From the IMG/VR virus record IMGVR_UViG_2565956633_000006: a stretch of DNA of 13,400 bases; one strand, 5' to 3'. Of this stretch, positions 1-12,400 are shown in pieces; the stretch's first letter is position 1, and the number at the start of each line of letters is the position of its first letter. This DNA comes from a virus. Lineage: Duplodnaviria > Heunggongvirae > Uroviricota > Caudoviricetes. The notes beneath the pieces are model-generated. The model worked only from the letters and a program-made list of their open reading frames with translations, had not been told where the DNA came from and did not search any database. Made by a program: the position numbers and the translations under genes.

Positions 1-1284
1 TTACAGACTTCTGGAAGGTTGCGCAGCTCTTACAACACGCGGTTGATCTTCCGCGGCGTCTTCCAGCGCACTTAAATCACGGTCTTTCACTTCTGGCATT
101 TTCAGCGCAGAGATTAAACCAATCACTGAATATGCCATGATCATAATGGCGATCGGATACCAGGATTCCGTCATGGTGCAGAAAATACCCGCCAGGATAG
201 GACCAAAACCGGAAGCGATAAGACCACCAATTTCTTTAGAAATAGCCATCCGGGTAAAGCGGTTTTTACAGCCGAACATTTCTGCCATGGTAATATTTTC
301 CAGAGCAAATAATCCCAGCACCGCACAGTTATGAATCACAATCAGTGCAACCATAATGGTGCTCGGGGCATAGCTTTTATCTACGATGATAGAAAGCATT
401 GGCCATGCCAGCACAATCGCGGAGGTATTCATAATAATATACGGGATCCGGCGACCAATTTTATCGGATAACCAACCAAGGAACGGAATGGTCATAAAGC
501 CGAGAATCGAACTGATCATCAATGCATCTGTTGGAATTGCTTTGTTAAACAATAACGTCTGCACTAAATAGCCCGCAAGGAAAGTCTGAATTAAACCTGA
601 GTTACCCGCCTGACCAAAACGCAGCCCTGTTGCCAGCCAGAAGGATTTGCTCTGGAACATGCTACCAGCAGGTGCAGGTTTTGCTGTCGGTTGGTTGCTG
701 TCGTTAACCTTCTCAAAAACCGGGCTTTCTTTCAGATTCATACGCAACCAGATAGCAAAGACCATCACGACAACGCTCGCCAGGAACGGTATACGCCATC
801 CCCACGCCAGCAGTTCCTCTTTACTGAGAATGAAGAACATAAAGGCCCAGATTGCCGTTGCGCTTAAAGTTCCGCAGTTAGTTCCCATAGCCACAAATGA
901 GGAGATAATTCCGCGCTTACCTTTTGGCGCATATTCCGCCAGCATCGTACCGGCACCGGAAATTTCCGCACCTGCACCCAATCCCTGAATAATACGCAGC
1001 GTCACCAGCAAGATAGGGGCAAAAACACCAATCTGTGCATAGGTCGGTAACACACCAATTAAGGTGGTACAGATCCCCATCATGGTGATGGTAATAAAGA
1101 GCACTTTTTTACGCCCTATTCTGTCGCCCATTTTGCCGAAAATAAATGCTCCGACAATACGCGCCACATAACCTGCACCGTAGGTTCCCATTGCCAGAAT
1201 TAACGCCATTGCCGTTGATGATTCAGGAAAAAATATTTCATGAAACACTATCGCTGCGCCGAGCGAATATAACTGGAAATCCAT
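1..1284 (-). CDS. ydfJ: MFS (metabolite:H+ symporter family) transporter, N-terminally truncated at the prophage junction
   Basis: 427-aa ORF with many hydrophobic helices and GRK/R motifs typical of MFS. The product starts at MDFQLYSLG, aligning with the conserved (W)YDF..YG motif of MHS transporters, so about 25 N-terminal residues are missing. ATG at 1282-1284 has no convincing Shine-Dalgarno upstream. Stop at 1-3. Confidence 0.8.
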   Translation of the reverse strand: MDFQLYSLGAAIVFHEIFFPESSTAMALILAMGTYGAGYVARIVGAFIFGKMGDRIGRKKVLFITITMMGICTTLIGVLPTYAQIGVFAPILLVTLRIIQGLGAGAEISGAGTMLAEYAPKGKRGIISSFVAMGTNCGTLSATAIWAFMFFILSKEELLAWGWRIPFLASVVVMVFAIWLRMNLKESPVFEKVNDSNQPTAKPAPAGSMFQSKSFWLATGLRFGQAGNSGLIQTFLAGYLVQTLLFNKAIPTDALMISSILGFMTIPFLGWLSDKIGRRIPYIIMNTSAIVLAWPMLSIIVDKSYAPSTIMVALIVIHNCAVLGLFALENITMAEMFGCKNRFTRMAISKEIGGLIASGFGPILAGIFCTMTESWYPIAIMIMAYSVIGLISALKMPEVKDRDLSALEDAAEDQPRVVRAAQPSRSL

Positions 1285-1888
1285 AATTCACAGGTGTTTT
1301 TTCCCATCCTGTGGTTTCCTTGGCGTTTTCTAGGTTTTTTCAGATAGTTGCATTTTTTAAAAAGCATCCTAAGTTCGATCTCAGTGTCTATCTGGGGCCT
1401 ATTTCTGTCCCATATATGCCCCAAAAAAAACTCCCCAACAGATAAGTAGTTTTTTCATGGATTTATGCGTAAAATCAAGAACGGCTGGAAATCATTCAAT
1501 ACTCACACTATCGAAAAATTTACCAGCCAACCGCAGCACGTTCTTGCATAAGGCGTGTCTGCGGTTTTTCAACTATTCAGATACATCACTCCCATCACAT
1601 TCATTCCTCCGCATCAAAGGCATATAGGCTATATCACCTTGATATTTTTATTTTTCAGATAAAAACTGTTATCTATGTATACTTTTAAACCCAATCCGTG
1701 TAGAGTCTCTGCATAAGATAGTTTGCAGTTGCCGCTTCAGCTTGCGCCATAAACCGCCTGATTTTTGCTGCCACCTGTTAGCATTCCTGTATACCTGAAA
1801 CGACAATGTTTATCTACGAACTTTAAGAACACCCAAGATAAAAATTGTCAACTATATCATATATAACACATTACTAATTCGAGGCTAT

Positions 1889-2002
1889 ATGAACAGCATA
1901 CTGATAATCACATCTCTCCTTATCATATTCAGCATTTTTAGTCATGCCCTAATAAAATTAGGGATTGGCATATCCAATAACCCAGACAAAACCGATGTAT
2001 AA
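1889..2002 (+). CDS. Hypothetical 37-aa hydrophobic small protein ([37 protein letters not shown])
   Basis: ATG at 1889 preceded by GAGG at 1881-1884; single predicted transmembrane helix followed by a polar tail; stop TAA at 2000-2002. Below the ORF-track length cutoff; found by reading the DNA. Confidence 0.25.
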
Positions 2003-2070
2003 GTCAACATATCCTGAATCAGACATACAATATCGCAATGAAAATCAATAATATTTTAAGGAATATCTTC

Positions 2071-2304
2071 ATGAAATCAAAAGACACCCTAAAGTGGTTC
2101 CCTGCGCAGCTTCCTGAAGTAAGAATTATCCTAGGGGATGCTGTAGTGGAAGTAGCAAAACAGGGAAGACCTATCAATACCAGAACATTGCTTGATTACA
2201 TTGAAGGAAACATAAAGAAAAAATCATGGCTGGATAACAAAGAATTATTACAAACAGCGATATCAGTTCTTAAAGACAACCAAAATTTAAATGGTAAAAT
2301 GTAA
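2071..2304 (+). CDS. ydfK: Small prophage protein YdfK (YnaE paralog, cold-shock associated), 77 aa
   Basis: ORF 2038..2304; internal ATG at 2071 (MKSKDTLKWF...) has AAGGA 7 nt upstream, so 2071 is the likely start. Confidence 0.75.
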   Translation: MKSKDTLKWFPAQLPEVRIILGDAVVEVAKQGRPINTRTLLDYIEGNIKKKSWLDNKELLQTAISVLKDNQNLNGKM

Positions 2305-2620
2305 TATAATAAACTTACTTTTTTATCATTTTTCCACTTTAACAACATTTTGCTCCACTTTTCCACGACCAAACAACTTGAAATCTGGTTAAAATAACAC
2401 GCAACACTATTCTTCTTCCTTGAGTCCGCCCGGAACTCGAAAAACAAACCGAGTTAAAGCCATTTTTCACAAAATCGATTTTGGGTCTCACCAAAATTAC
2501 GGGGTTGCATACGCATTCGTTTATTTTCGAACGTGTACATACAAATATGCACAAAAATAATCAAAATTATTTTCTGAGATGCATTATGATATGAACACCA
2601 ATTTCGTATAGAGTCTCACT

Positions 2621-3211
2621 ATGTCTCGAATTTTTGCTTACTGTCGGATATCAACGCTGGATCAGACCACCGAAAATCAACGCCGGGAAATCGAAAGTGC
2701 AGGTTTTAAAATCAAACCTCAGCAAATAATCGAAGAACACATTAGCGGCTCAGCAGCAACCAGTGAGCGTCCTGGTTTTAACCGGTTGCTTGCTCGCCTG
2801 AAATGTGGTGATCAATTGATTGTGACAAAACTGGATCGCCTTGGTTGTAATGCAATGGATATCAGGAAAACAGTGGAACAACTGACCGAAACAGGTATCA
2901 GAGTGCATTGCTTAGCATTGGGGGGCATTGACCTGACCAGTCCAACAGGAAAAATGATGATGCAAGTAATTTCAGCAGTCGCTGAATTTGAACGAGACCT
3001 TTTACTTGAACGCACTCATTCCGGGATAGTAAGAGCCCGGGGCGCAGGGAAACGTTTTGGTCGACCACCTGTGTTAAATGAAGAACAGAAACAGGTGGTA
3101 TTCGAACGAATTAAGTCAGGTGTAAGTATAAGTGCCATTGCCCGGGAATTCAAAACCTCGCGGCAAACCATTTTAAGAGCCAAAGCAAAACTTCAGACAC
3201 CTGACATATAA
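2621..3211 (+). CDS. pinQ: Serine recombinase / DNA invertase (Gin/Hin/Pin family), 196 aa
   Basis: N-terminal [20 protein letters not shown] catalytic-serine motif and C-terminal helix-turn-helix ([23 protein letters not shown]), typical of Pin/Gin/Hin invertases. Confidence 0.95.
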
Positions 3212-3308
3212 AAAATAATCTCGGTGTGAGATGCTTTACGTCTTCCAAGCCACCTTCCTTGCCGTAAATGGAAAGATACATCTAATTATAGAATTTATAT
3301 GTTTTACC

Positions 3309-3884
3309 CTACGGCAGTGCTGGCCATTCAATATCCTGTGCAGTTGACGTATCAACACGGTTCAGCAATACCCGATACTTTTTCCATGCTTCCAGCAACG
3401 AGATTTCTTCCTCCGTTGCAATTTCCAGATCTGCAGCATCCTGAAGCGGCGCAATATGCTCACTGGCTACCTGCATCAGGCTGTTTTTTGTTTCTTCCGC
3501 CTCCCGGATCCGGAACAGTTTTTCTGCTTCCGTATCCTTCACCCAGGCTGTGCCGTTCCACTTCTGATATTCCCCTCCCGGCGATAACCAGGTAACATTT
3601 TCCGGTAACGGACCGAGTTCAGAAATAAATAACGCGTCGCCAGAAGCCACGTCATAAACCGTTTTACCCCGATGATCTTCAACGAGATGCCACGATGCCT
3701 CATCACTGTTGAAAACAGCCACGAAGCCTGCCGGAATATCTGGCGGTGCAATATCGATACTGTTTGCTGGCAGACCTGTATGAGGCGGAATATATGCGTC
3801 ACCTTCACCAATAAATTCATTAGTTCCGGCCAGCAGATTATAAATTTTTATGGTCCGTGGTTGTTCACTCATTCTGAATGCCAT
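3309..3884 (-). CDS. tfaQ: Tail fibre assembly protein (lambda Tfa-like), 191 aa
   Basis: Tfa-family product; start ATG overlaps the stf stop as TAATG at 3882-3886, indicating translational coupling. Confidence 0.9.
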
Positions 3885-4801
3885 TATGCAAGCCTCACAA
3901 TATAGTTAAATGCGATGTTTTTGACGGTGTTTTCCGCGTTACCAGCAGCGTTAACGGTGATGGTATGTCCATGTGAACCAATCGCAACGGAGTGCGTATG
4001 AGCACCAATACCGACAGTATGTGCGTGTGCACCTGCGCTTGCAGCAGTACCCGATACAGAGTGCGTATGAGCGCCTGCAGAAGAAGTGTTAACACTGTAT
4101 TTAGAATAATCAGGTGATCCACTTCCCGGAGCACCACTGGAACCACCTGAAACAAATGTCATCGAATGGGTATGTGCACCGGCTGAAGCAGCCGTACCGC
4201 TAACACTATGGGTATGCGCACCAGTGTTATTCGTGGATTTAGTGCCGTAATCAAACGACGATGTGGTTTTCGTCCCCAAATCCGTACTGGATACGCTGGC
4301 GCTGTGGGTGTGTGATTTAATGCCGTCCTGTTCCTGAGACAATACGGCTCGATCACTGGCGGGCTTGCCCTTAATCGTCCAGCCACGCATATCAGGGATC
4401 ACGCCTGACGGATAAGCGGCTGCAAGTTTCGGGTAAGCAGATTTGTCAAAAGTCTGCCCCTGCATCAGGGCATAACCAGACGGAACGGTATCTGATGGCC
4501 ACGGGATTGGTGCACCGACTGGATAAAACTCTGCAGGAGGATGAGCCGAGGTGTAAAGCTGCGCCCACGGCGACCAGTTTGCGTCGGTCGTATCCCGTCG
4601 TGAACGAATAAATGCCGGAGCATGAGCACCGCTTGTACCACTCCAGCCGATGAGTAACTCACCTTCGCCAACGGCTGTCATCCCTTTCAGGTGAATGATA
4701 TTTCCATACGCTGTTGGATATCCGTTGTTATACACCTCGTATAACTCAAGACCTGTTGCCCCCTGCGTATTGTCTGTCAGCGCGGTTACCCGCGTATCGT
4801 T
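3884..4801 (-). pseudogene. stfQ: Side tail fibre protein, C-terminal fragment (lambda Stf-like)
   Basis: Open frame from the stop at 4802-4804 down to the stop at 3884-3886, with no ATG near the 5' end (first start-like codon is GTG at 4733-4735, without an SD). Product carries repeated GAHTHS...[10 protein letters not shown] His-rich motifs and ends ...[11 protein letters not shown] as in lambda Stf. Confidence 0.85.
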
Positions 4802-4851
4802 TCATCGGCGCGGGCAATGGCAGCATCGAACAGGTTATCGGAATCAGCCAC
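4786..4851 (-). pseudogene. Remnant of lambda FII-like head-tail joining gene (first 21 codons only)
   Basis: GGGAGG followed by GTG GCT GAT TCC GAT AAC CTG TTC GAT GCT GCC ATT GCC CGC GCC GAT GAA ACG ATA CGC GGG TAA, i.e. [21 protein letters not shown], matching the lambda FII N-terminus ([21 protein letters not shown]) as I recall it. Start is GTG here, and the frame stops where the stf-derived sequence begins. Confidence 0.6.
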
Positions 4852-4862
4852 AGCGCCTCCCG

Positions 4863-5258
4863 TTATTGCATTCTGGCCAGGCCATGTTCTGTCATTTCGG
4901 CTGCCACACCGGCAGAGACACGAAACGCCGTTCCCGGCAGCACAAATGCCACAGGCTCATCCCGCGTGGCGTGAAGTGCATCAGTATGCAGCGTCACCAG
5001 TGCCACGACCGTGACCAGAGCAGCCGTATCAATCACGGTATCCGGCTGCGCTGATACCACCTCATTTTCATGTCCGGTCAGCGCATTTTCCGGGCTGACA
5101 GATGTGTCCTGACCGGCAGCGTCATCCGTGTCATCAAGCTCCTCTTCCAGCTCTGCCACACGGAGCACCAGTTCTTCTTTCGTCCCCGTCAGGCTGACAT
5201 CACGGTTCAGTTGCTCACCCAGCACCTGAAGACGGGCAATCAGTTCATCTTTCGTCAT
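4863..5258 (-). CDS. Lambda FI-like DNA packaging protein, 131 aa
   Basis: Product from the internal ATG at 5256-5258 (MTKDELIARLQVLGEQLNRDVSLTGTKEEL...) matches lambda gpFI; strong SD (GGAGGAG) upstream. The longer ORF-track start at 5297 lacks an SD. Confidence 0.85.
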   Translation of the reverse strand: MTKDELIARLQVLGEQLNRDVSLTGTKEELVLRVAELEEELDDTDDAAGQDTSVSPENALTGHENEVVSAQPDTVIDTAALVTVVALVTLHTDALHATRDEPVAFVLPGTAFRVSAGVAAEMTEHGLARMQ

Positions 5259-5279
5259 GGACTCCTCCACAGAGAGAAA

Positions 5280-5297
5280 ATGGCCCCGAAGGGCCAT
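5280..5297 (-). terminator. GC-rich hairpin between the E remnant and FI (ATGGCCC-TTCG-GGGCCAT on the minus strand, then TTTCTCTCT)
   Basis: Perfect 7-bp stem with a 4-nt loop, followed by a U-rich tract on the coding (minus) strand; could act as attenuator or mRNA stabiliser. Confidence 0.35.
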
Positions 5298-5299
5298 GA

Positions 5300-5866
5300 T
5301 TACGCCAGTTGTACGGACACGAACGCATCAGGATCAGCCAGCAGCATCAGCGGTGCTGACTGAATCATGGTGAACTCACGCGCCGGATCGCCGGTGGTCA
5401 CCCAGTTTTTCGGGTAGCGGGCAGAGGCGTTAATACCTTCGCGCTGTGCGTCCGCATCCTGAATGCAGCCATAGGTGCGCAGACCGCGTGCCTGAGTGTT
5501 CCCCAGCACCATCGTGTTGTCCGGCAGGAAGTTCTTTTTGACGTCGTTTTCCACGTACTGTCCGGAATACACGACGATCGCCGTATCGCCATACATCCCC
5601 TTATAGGACACCGCTTCGCCCAGGTCTTTTACCGCTGTCTCCAGCTCGGAATTAGAGCCGCGACGGGTATCCAGCTTCTCCTTGACGGCTTTGAAGGAAC
5701 GGAACAGCGCCCAGCCTTTCGGATCAAACACGATGATATTCACCACGCCGCTGGCGTTCAGCGCGTAGGCTTCGATATCGTCGGTCGGGTCATACGTGGA
5801 CTTGTCACGCTTGCTCCACTCCGTGCCGCCGGACTGCGTGATGTTGTTCGCCGCACTGCGGCCCAT
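5300..5866 (-). pseudogene. Major capsid protein (lambda gpE-like), C-terminal remnant of about 188 codons
   Basis: Product ends ...NTMVLGNTQARGLRTYGCIQDADAQREGINASARYPKNWVTTGDPAREFTMIQSAPLMLLADPDAFVSVQLA, matching the C-terminus of lambda E; the 5' half is absent and replaced by the Nu1-like gene. Confidence 0.85.
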
Positions 5867-6372
5867 ATCAGTTCATCCAGCGCGGCTGCTTTGTTCATGG
5901 CTTTGATGATATCCCGTTTCAGGAAATCAACATGTCGGTTTTCCAGTTCCGGAAAACGCCGCTGCACCGACAGGGGGATCCCGTCGAGAATACTGGCAAT
6001 TTCACCTGCGATCCGCGACAGCACGAAAGTACAGAATGCGGTTTCCACCACTTCAGCGGAGTCTCTGGCATTTTTCAGCTCCTGTGCGTCGGCCTGCGCA
6101 CGCGTAAGTCGATGGCGTTCGTACTCAATAGTCCCTGGCTGGAGATCTGTCTCGCTGGCCTGCCGCAGTTCTTCAACTTCCCGGCGCAGCTTTTCGTTCT
6201 CAATTTCAGCATCCCTTTCGGCATACCATCTTATAACGGCGGCAGAGTCATAAAGCACCTCATTACCCTTGCCACCGCCTCGCAGAACGGGCATTCCCTG
6301 TTCCTGCCAGTTCTGAATGGTACGGATACTCGCACCGAAAATGTCAGCCAGCTGCTTTTTGTTGACTTCCAT
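5758..6372 (-). CDS. nohA: Terminase small subunit Nu1 homolog with altered C-terminus (fusion to out-of-frame capsid-gene sequence)
   Basis: First ~168 aa (MEVNKKQLADIFGASIRTIQNWQEQGMPVLRGGGKGNEVLYDSAAV...) match lambda Nu1 nearly residue for residue; the tail (..WAAVRRTTSRSPAARSGASVTSPRMTRPTISKPTR) is read from E-derived DNA in another frame. Confidence 0.85.
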   Translation of the reverse strand: MEVNKKQLADIFGASIRTIQNWQEQGMPVLRGGGKGNEVLYDSAAVIRWYAERDAEIENEKLRREVEELRQASETDLQPGTIEYERHRLTRAQADAQELKNARDSAEVVETAFCTFVLSRIAGEIASILDGIPLSVQRRFPELENRHVDFLKRDIIKAMNKAAALDELIWAAVRRTTSRSPAARSGASVTSPRMTRPTISKPTR

Positions 6373-6620
6373 TGTTCATTCCACGGCCAAAAACAGAGAA
6401 AGGAAACGACAGAGGCCCAAAAGCTCGTTTTCAGCACCTGTCGTTTCCTTTCTTTTCAGGGGGTATTTTAAATAAAAACATTAAGTTACGACGAAGAAGA
6501 ACGGAAATGCCTTAAACCGGAAAATTTTCATAAATAGCGAAAACCCGCGAGGTCGCCGCCCCGTAACCTGTCGGATCGCCGGAAAGGACCCGCAAAATGA
6601 TAATAATTATCATCTGCATG
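6373..6620 (-). other. Lambda-type cos packaging site (cosN 12-nt cohesive end at 6550..6561, with cosB toward nohA and cosQ on the other side)
   Basis: Reverse complement of 6481-6563 reads GGGGCGGCGACCTCGCGGGTTTTCGCTATTTATGAAAATTTTCCGGTTTAAGGCATTTCCGTTCTTCTTCGTCGTAACTTAA, nearly identical to the lambda left end as I recall it, including cohesive end GGGCGGCGACCT. Confidence 0.8.
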
Positions 6621-7613: not shown

Positions 7614-7787
7614 TCAGATTAAATTAATCTTGACATCATAGCTTTCAAGACCCGTCATTTTTTCCCGTGCGGTAAACTGAATACTGGTAACTTCTTTCCC
7701 GGTCTTTTTCTTAAGTTCAATAATTTTTTTTGTTATATATTCAGAAATATCTGCTTCTGCTTTTGTTTTTAAGTTTTCAATATTCAT
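7614..7787 (-). CDS. gnsB: GnsB-like small protein, 57 aa (MNIENLKTKAEADISEYITKKIIELKKKTGKEVTSIQFTAREKMTGLESYDVKINLI)
   Basis: Absent from the ORF track (under 60 aa); translated by hand from the minus strand. ATG at 7785-7787 with GAGGAA upstream; product resembles GnsA/GnsB. Confidence 0.8.
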   Translation of the reverse strand: MNIENLKTKAEADISEYITKKIIELKKKTGKEVTSIQFTAREKMTGLESYDVKINLI

Positions 7788-7958
7788 CATTTCCTCTTTT
7801 AGTCTGTTATGACTTTCCAGTTACACAGTAAGTCGATTATATGGTGCAAACGTGTAAAAGATAAGATGAAACATCGCAATAATCAACATACGATAGTCTA
7901 AATTTTACACAAACAGACAAAGAAAATTTTCCTGAATTATCAATACAATAGCATCAAA

Positions 7959-11040: not shown

Positions 11041-11065
11041 ATAAAAAACCCGCCTGAGCGGGTTT
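11041..11065 (-). terminator. Rho-independent terminator (AACCCGC-TCAG-GCGGGTT followed by TTTTTTAT on the minus strand); weakly bidirectional
   Basis: 7-bp GC-rich stem with tetraloop and a U-tract on the minus-strand transcript; downstream of cspB and convergent with the zinc-ribbon ORF. Confidence 0.6.
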
Positions 11066-12361: not shown

Positions 12362-12400
12362 AAGCACAAAACCCGCTCATCAGCGGGTTTTCTACTTTTT
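12362..12400. terminator. Bidirectional rho-independent terminator (AAACCCGCT-CATC-AGCGGGTTT with T-rich flanks on both strands); candidate tR'
   Basis: 9-bp stem; the plus strand continues TCTACTTTTT and the minus-strand transcript continues TTTTGTGCTTT. Confidence 0.6.

Follow-up and report, generated by a model that had tools for sequence, protein, structure and literature searches.

The gene pinQ, which lies on a 13,400-nt stretch of DNA (the window; Caudoviricetes, IMG/VR virus record IMGVR_UViG_2565956633_000006), is probably the fossil of a Tn3-family resolvase cassette, crippled in its active site, and not a tail-fibre invertase. Annotation of near-identical loci, Pfam and translation identified the window as the attachment-site-proximal end of a Qin-type cryptic (defective) lambdoid prophage of Escherichia coli. 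The locus is already known: the gene is pinQ of the E. coli Qin prophage, and the window protein differs at two residues from K-12-type PinQ. The gene stands next to tfaQ, a tail-fibre assembly gene, and a truncated tail-fibre gene, stf. An earlier note, made from the sequence alone, had taken pinQ for an orphan invertase of the kind found in Mu, P1 and e14, whose invertible segment had decayed.

Kinship of PinQ with transposon resolvases

In amino acid sequence PinQ shares 36% identity with Gin, 38% with PinE and 32% with gamma-delta resolvase, compared with 79% between PinE and Gin, so PinQ falls outside the tight invertase cluster. NCBIfam held no equivalog above cut-off for PinQ. The closest relatives with Arg at the catalytic position discussed below were TnpR resolvases encoded beside Tn3-family transposases: PinQ is 78-85% identical to these proteins, and 85% identical to the TnpR of an IncF plasmid. 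A database search returned relatives in the thousands (78-93% identity), and many of these are plasmid-borne. The gene context is uniform: the tnpR genes of an E. coli IncF plasmid, of Klebsiella, of Hafnia and of Shewanella are divergent from the gene of a 994-995-amino-acid DDE_Tnp_Tn3 transposase, the two genes being separated by a spacer of ~160 bp.

The transposon is 3815 bp long, has the order tnpA-res-tnpR, and ends in perfect 38-bp terminal inverted repeats (IRs, GGGGTCCGCTTGGAAAACGGAAAATATCCCACGCTAAG), which were defined in two of the loci compared (L006 and L018). One Shewanella strain carries three copies, distributed over chromosome and plasmid, hence the element is mobile. In a blastn comparison positions 3097-3808 of the 3815-bp transposon aligned with 2541-3250 of the window at 82.3% nucleotide identity over 712 bp. 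No remnant of tnpA was detected in the window by tblastn or blastn.

Beyond the identity of protein and DNA, the pinQ locus shares with the TnpR/res unit of the Tn3 family (models: Tn3 and gamma-delta) the same promoter and 5′ untranslated region, homologous middle and proximal res dyads, and a homologous terminal IR right after the stop codon. It differs from such elements in the lack of the transposase, of the tnpA-proximal dyad and of the second IR, in binding half-sites that are degraded to 7-8 matches out of 9, in an IR reduced to 25 matches out of 38, and in the replacement of the catalytic Arg by Cys76. Moreover, purifying selection is relaxed 5-10-fold in PinQ, and the gene resides in a phage accessory region.

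The RefSeq annotation of a plasmid copy reads only "recombinase family protein", and the gene lies between IS110-family elements. On the avian pathogenic E. coli (APEC) plasmid pEND_Eco 16002 (L020, 3472-6746) a transposon-type tnpR is located between two IS110-family transposase genes, one unnamed and one belonging to IS4321. IS4321 is directed at terminal repeats of the Tn21 type, and the IR described above would be in keeping with this.

Relics of res and of a terminal repeat on the two sides of pinQ

In the transposons res consists of three conserved dyads of the half-site TGTMCGAAA: a distal dyad of 26 bp, a middle dyad of 32 bp over the -35 region, and a proximal dyad of 19 bp between the -10 box and the ribosome-binding site. 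This footprint was derived from an alignment of four diverged transposon copies, whose synonymous divergence is near saturation. Upstream of pinQ we found relics of the middle and the proximal dyads and a possible trace of the distal one (Table 1). The middle dyad can be aligned, with no gap, to TGTCCGAAAGTGAGTGAAATTAATTTCGTACA and to the variant forms of this sequence in the Tn3-family relatives, and its half-sites, TGCACAAAA and TCTCAGAAA, each agree with TGTMCGAAA at seven of the nine positions. Homology at the level of BLAST begins only at 2541; the distal half-site, located upstream of this point, was recognized by alignment, motif scan and half-site readout. The hexamer TATGAT, with TATAAT as its counterpart in every transposon relative, falls into the conserved column block ATGCATTATAAT and is presumed on these grounds to be the -10 box of pinQ; a simple promoter scan did not pick it. 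Window-wide the half-site TGTMCGAAA was not enriched (75 observed, 74 expected) and had no exact copy, and a scan for exact TCCGAAA was uninformative. Only the local cluster between 2525 and 2610 matters, and homology explains it. On the other side of the gene the homology with the transposon stops at the outer end of the decayed right IR. No left IR was found at the pinQ locus.

The earlier note had singled out a perfect palindrome, AAAATAAT-CAAA-ATTATTTT, as a candidate protein-binding site. The palindrome is real, but it lies one base to the left of the position given there (2554-2573, not 2555-2574). It occurs once in the window, and 47 bp separate its end from the ATG of pinQ. Homology to a conserved resolvase-binding dyad lends support to the proposed role, and the best interpretation of the palindrome is that it forms the core of a resolvase-binding site, now a relic, on pinQ's own promoter. 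In Tn3 and gamma-delta, TnpR bound to res represses tnpR. By analogy, the middle dyad would serve PinQ as operator for the control of its own gene, provided that PinQ still binds there.

It is conceivable, and we do not dismiss it although we do not favour it, that the palindrome has no protein-binding role and is a chance feature of the AT-rich promoter region where a res subsite once was. Taken alone, it is not beyond chance: among sequences simulated with the same first-order base transitions (Markov-1; 8+8 perfect, spacer up to 8; spacer region 34% GC) a perfect 8+8 inverted repeat arose in 8% (for 2305-2620) to 24% (for 1285-2620). In the half-sites, which would be contacted by the helix-turn-helix, positions that are invariant among the transposon copies have decayed, and the palindrome is lost in a recombinant prophage copy (L021, see below). 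The sequences retaining it are all about 99% identical in their flanks, which makes its conservation uninformative. What argues for a binding site is that the palindrome and the conserved 32-bp res dyad have exactly the same axis, that the symmetry of the inner 20 bp was kept or re-created while the outer bases diverged, and that the site is positioned over the -35 region, where resolvase autoregulation acts in Tn3-type elements.

Two short sequences, AAAAATAATC followed by TGAGATGC, occur in the same order 5′ (2553-2562 and 2575-2582) and 3′ (3211-3220 and 3227-3234) of pinQ, separated by 12 and 6 nt, respectively. The 3′ pair coincides in part with the inner portion of the relic terminal repeat; it may be due to chance or represent a further binding site.

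Replacement of a catalytic arginine and relaxed selection

The earlier note had named in advance a substitution of a catalytic residue as evidence that would speak against its own reading, and such a substitution was found: Cys76 of PinQ replaces the Arg equivalent to R71 of Tn3 resolvase. Cys76 aligns with R71 of gamma-delta and Tn3 resolvases and with the Arg in the KLDRLGR motif of Gin, and the alignment of KLDRLG(R/C) to the solved structures of Gin and gamma-delta resolvase is unambiguous. K-12-type PinQ has the same Cys. Among the 120 best cluster representatives Arg occupies this position in 115, and Cys was found only in the PinQ/PinR clusters and in P0009, a prophage allele with 85% identity. 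The remaining catalytic positions of PinQ are intact (Y7, R9, S11, Q15, Q20, R50, D72 and R73). The catalytic set Y6, R8, S10, R68 and R71 (Tn3/gamma-delta numbering) is thus incomplete in PinQ, in which Y7, R9, S11 and R73 are present and Cys76 stands instead of Arg.

The R71A and R71K variants of Tn3 resolvase did not recombine and cleaved DNA about 1000-fold less, and their DNA binding was retained (PMC2794168). By comparison with these mutants Cys76 predicts a severe catalytic defect; PinQ would be catalytically crippled and may still bind DNA. Selection on the gene was assessed by the ratio of non-synonymous to synonymous substitution rates (dN/dS), which was 0.38 between two Cys-bearing prophage alleles as against 0.02-0.07 among the transposon copies (Fisher P < 3e-4). 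Relaxed selection on pinQ is consistent with loss or change of function.

Two further copies of the gene deserve description. At the same Qin locus of another E. coli (L008, 6001-6591) the gene again encodes Cys76, and the flanks share about 99% identity with the window; the pin coding region differs at 54 sites over 190 codons (31 of the substitutions non-synonymous; about 90% nucleotide and 85% amino acid identity), an unusually divergent allele in a conserved context. The copy in an E. coli prophage located at another integration site (L021, 4780-5710) encodes Arg at position 76 between prophage-type flanks and has lost the palindrome. It is identical in type to the transposon of the IncF plasmid over a tract that begins with the right half of the middle res dyad and takes in most of the coding region, as if a transposon copy had patched the prophage relic by gene conversion.

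Absence of an inversion switch at the pinQ locus

As the earlier note had stated, pinQ (+) converges on tfaQ and stf (-); the open reading frames (ORFs) extend over 2621-3211, 3309-3884 and 3884-4798, respectively. The end of the fibre module given there, 4735, is only the GTG chosen by the ORF finder, and the reading frame of Stf continues to about 4798. The description of an orphan recombinase beside a single-orientation tail-fibre module was correct, and so was the statement that there is no alternative tfa′/stf′ copy: in tblastn searches of the 13.4-kb window with TfaQ, the Stf fragment and four proteins of the e14 P segment, one tfa and one stf C-terminus were found and no second copy of either (other matches E > 0.1). 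The paired inverted crossover sites that the note had proposed to look for were not found in the window. The 26-bp gix/hix/pix consensus (TTNTCNNAAACCNNGGTTTNNGANAA-like) had no match in the window at <=3 mismatches; in e14, used as positive control, the same pattern recovered both pix sites. Inverted-repeat searches over 1300-6500 and 1900-3500 did not reveal a recombinase-site-like inverted pair, they yielded short, low-identity pairs in coding regions, at the level expected by chance, and no plausible segment was bounded by any of them.

PinQ resembles PinE with the P segment of e14, and also Gin (G segment, Mu), Cin (C segment, P1) and Hin (H segment, Salmonella), in being a small serine recombinase, a member of the resolvase/invertase superfamily, encoded next to stf/tfa-type genes in a prophage. 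Unlike these systems, the pinQ locus has neither 26-bp crossover sites nor an inverted alternative fibre cassette. The 3′ end of pinQ points at tfa, whereas in e14 it is the 5′ end of pinE that faces the P segment. The recognition helix of PinQ, SRQTILR, differs from that of PinE, VSTLYK, and PinQ differs from PinE and Gin also in having Cys at the position of the catalytic Arg.

The same cassette was found in deposited phage genomes. PinQ is 100% identical, Cys76 included, in phages Tritos, HannyBb, mEp460, 2H10 and PhiR63_1. In Tritos and HannyBb the ynfT-ydfK-pin cassette (window ~1900-3420) is 99% identical and lies between the tail-fibre genes and attP/int. The fibre genes that accompany the identical pin cassette in the deposited phages are different from those of the window and are in a single orientation, therefore the orphan layout is the normal state of this phage group and not the outcome of decay within Qin. 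The pin cassette is not coupled to any particular fibre module.

A sharp mosaic breakpoint with respect to Tritos and HannyBb is located at ~3420 of the window, inside the 3′ end of tfaQ (L003, ~7690-7800). The last ~37 codons of tfaQ (3309-3420) move together with the pin cassette in other phages: in Tritos and HannyBb the cassette still carries ~110 bp from the end of a Qin-type tfa as a non-coding remnant, although the fibre genes of these phages are unrelated. Fibre modules were evidently swapped by recombination at this breakpoint.

Weighing of alternative explanations

We consider it very improbable that pinQ is an invertase of the Gin/Cin/Pin type whose adjacent invertible tail-fibre segment, carrying alternative tfa′/stf′ sequences, decayed or was deleted, as the earlier note had supposed. 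The recombinase does adjoin tfa/stf as in Mu, P1 and e14, and the prophage is heavily deleted. These points are opposed by the lack of any match to the crossover-site consensus despite the positive e14 control, the lack of leftovers of a second fibre cassette, the orientation of pinQ, which is opposite to the gin/cin/pinE layout, and the low identity of PinQ to Gin and PinE compared with that between PinE and Gin. Intact phage genomes with the identical pin cassette share the single-orientation layout, and transposon relics, res and IR, lie on both sides of pinQ. In our preferred explanation neither inversion nor resolution takes place at the pinQ locus, since the transposase, the tnpA-proximal dyad and any partner site are gone, the half-sites are degraded, and Cys replaces the catalytic Arg; the gene would stand beside tail-fibre genes by coincidence.

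A different role has been proposed by Kirigo et al. (Nucleic Acids Res 2025; PMC12529663), who studied PinQ and PinR of E. coli K-12, where pinQ is the same gene as in the window, and treat PinQ as an active invertase acting on e14. In their experiments PinQ over-production shifted the e14 P segment from 26-30% to 88% inverted. The effect required the pix repeats and e14, and phage T2 induced pinQ/pinR 14-fold. In a pinQ deletion strain inversion was slightly lower (22%), and the cells were sensitised to phage T2. In a pinE deletion strain with intact pinQ and pinR the P segment was "locked" (1.5% inverted); over-produced PinE led to 49% inversion. The authors concluded that PinQ is an active invertase in trans. 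Their BLAST survey across E. coli genomes revealed no inversions in Qin or Rac, and the orphan status was likewise reported. In the passages searched we did not find a PinQ active-site mutant or over-expression of PinQ in the pinE deletion strain, nor did we find the Arg-to-Cys substitution or the transposon ancestry of PinQ mentioned. In Table S4 of the same paper the values 98.4 and 98.6 are listed for the pinE deletion under per-replicate inversion percentages, with a mean of 1.5 +/- 0.2; the replicate values are evidently percentages of the non-inverted form.

According to this proposal the substrate of PinQ is the e14 P segment, which is inverted on phage attack to yield the adsorption-blocking chimera StfE2. 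We regard catalysis by PinQ in trans as unlikely. The shift upon over-production, the lower value in the pinQ deletion strain, the dependence on pix and e14 and the induction by T2 support it. In addition, the pix half-site TCTCCCAAA matches the half-site of the PinQ family, TGTCCGAAA, at seven of nine positions, equal to the relic sites beside pinQ, so weak binding of PinQ to pix is possible. The near absence of inversion in the pinE deletion strain, despite the presence of pinQ and pinR, is contrary to it, and these data fit PinE as the catalyst. The 49% obtained with PinE is the expected equilibrium, whereas the 88:12 ratio is atypical of a simple reversible invertase, and so points to bias or selection. 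PinQ lacks the catalytic Arg, with Cys in its stead, is only 38% identical to PinE, has a different recognition helix, and is by descent a transposon resolvase. Finally, the pinQ-carrying phages lack e14.

Our preferred explanation, the fossil resolvase cassette with a crippled active site, has also to face observations that weigh against it. The over-production and deletion results of Kirigo et al. indicate that PinQ has some activity or effect in vivo. The inactivity ascribed to Cys76 is extrapolated from Tn3 resolvase, whose R71 mutants were described as "not inert" (PMC2794168), hence residual catalysis by PinQ under strong over-expression is possible. The pinQ ORF is intact in thousands of genomes and in the deposited phage genomes, and the dN/dS of the prophage alleles is still below 1 (P = 0.0015), which together argue for some retained function rather than pure decay. 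The distal dyad, now lost, would be the crossover site, an assignment that follows only from the order of sites in Tn3.

A retained function without cutting can be envisaged. PinQ might be a pseudo-recombinase, a transposon resolvase deprived of catalysis by the change of Arg76 to Cys and kept by lambdoid phages as a sequence-specific DNA-binding protein, for example to bias PinE-driven inversion at the pix sites of e14, or to block resolution or transposase expression at the res sites of incoming Tn3-family transposons and plasmids. We think this improbable, a speculation rather than a favoured view; a bias imposed by PinQ on inversion by PinE, if true, would explain both the 88% skew and the dependence on pinE.

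The prophage context

The order of genes in the window is ydfJ, ynfT, ydfK, pinQ, tfaQ, truncated stf and remnants of head and packaging genes (FI, a fragment of capsid gene E, Nu1). The features discussed are listed in Table 1. A search of 5,426 complete genomes of E. coli did not find the window verbatim; the best match spans 97% of it at 98.9-99.3% identity. The gene ydfK is part of a conserved phage accessory cassette, ynfT-ydfK-pinQ, and is not transposon-derived.

Table 1. Positions of the features in the 13,400-nt window
Feature	Position	Strand	Remarks
ydfJ, host gene, interrupted	1-1284	-	
ydfK, YnaE-family cold-shock gene	2038-2304 (annotated start near 2071)	+	Annotation of near-identical loci
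Distal res dyad, possible relic of the right half-site, CGTTCGAAA	2525-2533	-	7/9 vs TGTMCGAAA; rest of the dyad unrecognisable
Middle res dyad, relic, 32 bp, TGCACAAAA-N14-TTTCTGAGA	2548-2579		Overlaps -35 of the pinQ promoter
Perfect palindrome, AAAATAAT-CAAA-ATTATTTT	2554-2573		Inner 20 bp of the middle res dyad, same symmetry axis
-10-like hexamer TATGAT, presumed pinQ/tnpR promoter	2585-2590	+	Conserved column block ATGCATTATAAT; TATAAT in all transposon relatives
Proximal res dyad, relic, TGAAC-N9-GTATA	2592-2610		TGTAC-N9-GTACA in the transposons; right half-site TATACGAAA, 8/9
pinQ, small serine recombinase, 196 amino acids, by descent tnpR of a Tn3-family transposon	2621-3211	+	Pfam Resolvase and HTH_7
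Codon 76, TGT (Cys), motif KLDRLGC	2846-2848	+	Place of the catalytic Arg (Tn3/gamma-delta R71)
Right terminal IR (IRR), decayed	3220-3257		25/38 identical to CTTAGCGTGGGATATTTTCCGTTTTCCAAGCGGACCCC; transposon homology stops at its outer end
tfaQ, tail-fibre assembly gene	3309-3884	-	Caudo_TAP domain
stf, C-terminal fragment, 305 codons, pseudogene	3884 to about 4798	-	Translation; Collar and Phage_fiber domains

The two fibre genes correspond to the side tail fibre module stf-tfa of lambdoid phages, in which a Stf protein with Collar and fibre repeats is followed by a Caudo_TAP protein; in the window Stf is N-terminally truncated. TfaQ and the Stf fragment are homologous to TfaE and StfE of e14 (about 36-38% identity). 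In relatives the stf fragment is annotated as an incomplete phage tail protein. Its open frame has no start, because the N-terminal part was deleted, and it abuts the head genes: FI (4863-5297), a C-terminal piece of the major capsid protein E (5300-5866) and Nu1 (5758-6372). Every tail gene and most head genes are deleted, in a pattern unlike that of K-12 Qin and of the best database matches. The fragment contains His-rich fibre repeats of the GAHTHS type (3884-4735) and exceeds the 702-bp pseudogene annotated in K-12-like strains by about 150 bp; variation in repeat number is the probable cause.

Just 5′ of Nu1 (6397-6453) there is a 26-nt inverted repeat with 85% complementarity and a 5-nt loop, possibly part of a cos or terminase-binding region. 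Perfect GC-rich hairpins (AAACCCGC...GCGGGTTT) at 11046-11065 and 12368-12391, in remnants of the late region, resemble intrinsic terminators.

Proposed history of pinQ and its implications

We propose that pinQ goes back to the insertion of a ~3.8-kb Tn3-family transposon at a distance of about 50 bp downstream from tfa, which happened in an ancestor of Qin, Rac and the mEp460-like phages. Its surviving right end would consist of three pieces: part of res including the palindrome, the resolvase gene, and the decayed 38-bp terminal IR. Losses would include the transposase, the res dyad on the tnpA side and any partner site, and the binding half-sites would have been degraded. Catalysis by PinQ would have been lost or weakened through the Arg to Cys76 replacement; DNA binding may persist, with the dyad at 2548-2579 then serving as the operator for autoregulation. 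The opposite direction of transfer, by which the transposon acquired the 712-bp block and the IR from a phage, is unlikely because the same intact IR is present at both ends of the transposon.

A recombinase gene beside tail-fibre genes need not be a host-range switch. If PinQ lacks the catalytic Arg and inversion needs PinE, the mechanism of the "recombinase-activated phage defence" described in 2025 needs re-examination. The "Pin" genes of Qin/Rac-type prophages and mEp460-like phages should, in our reading, be regarded as relics of transposon resolvases.

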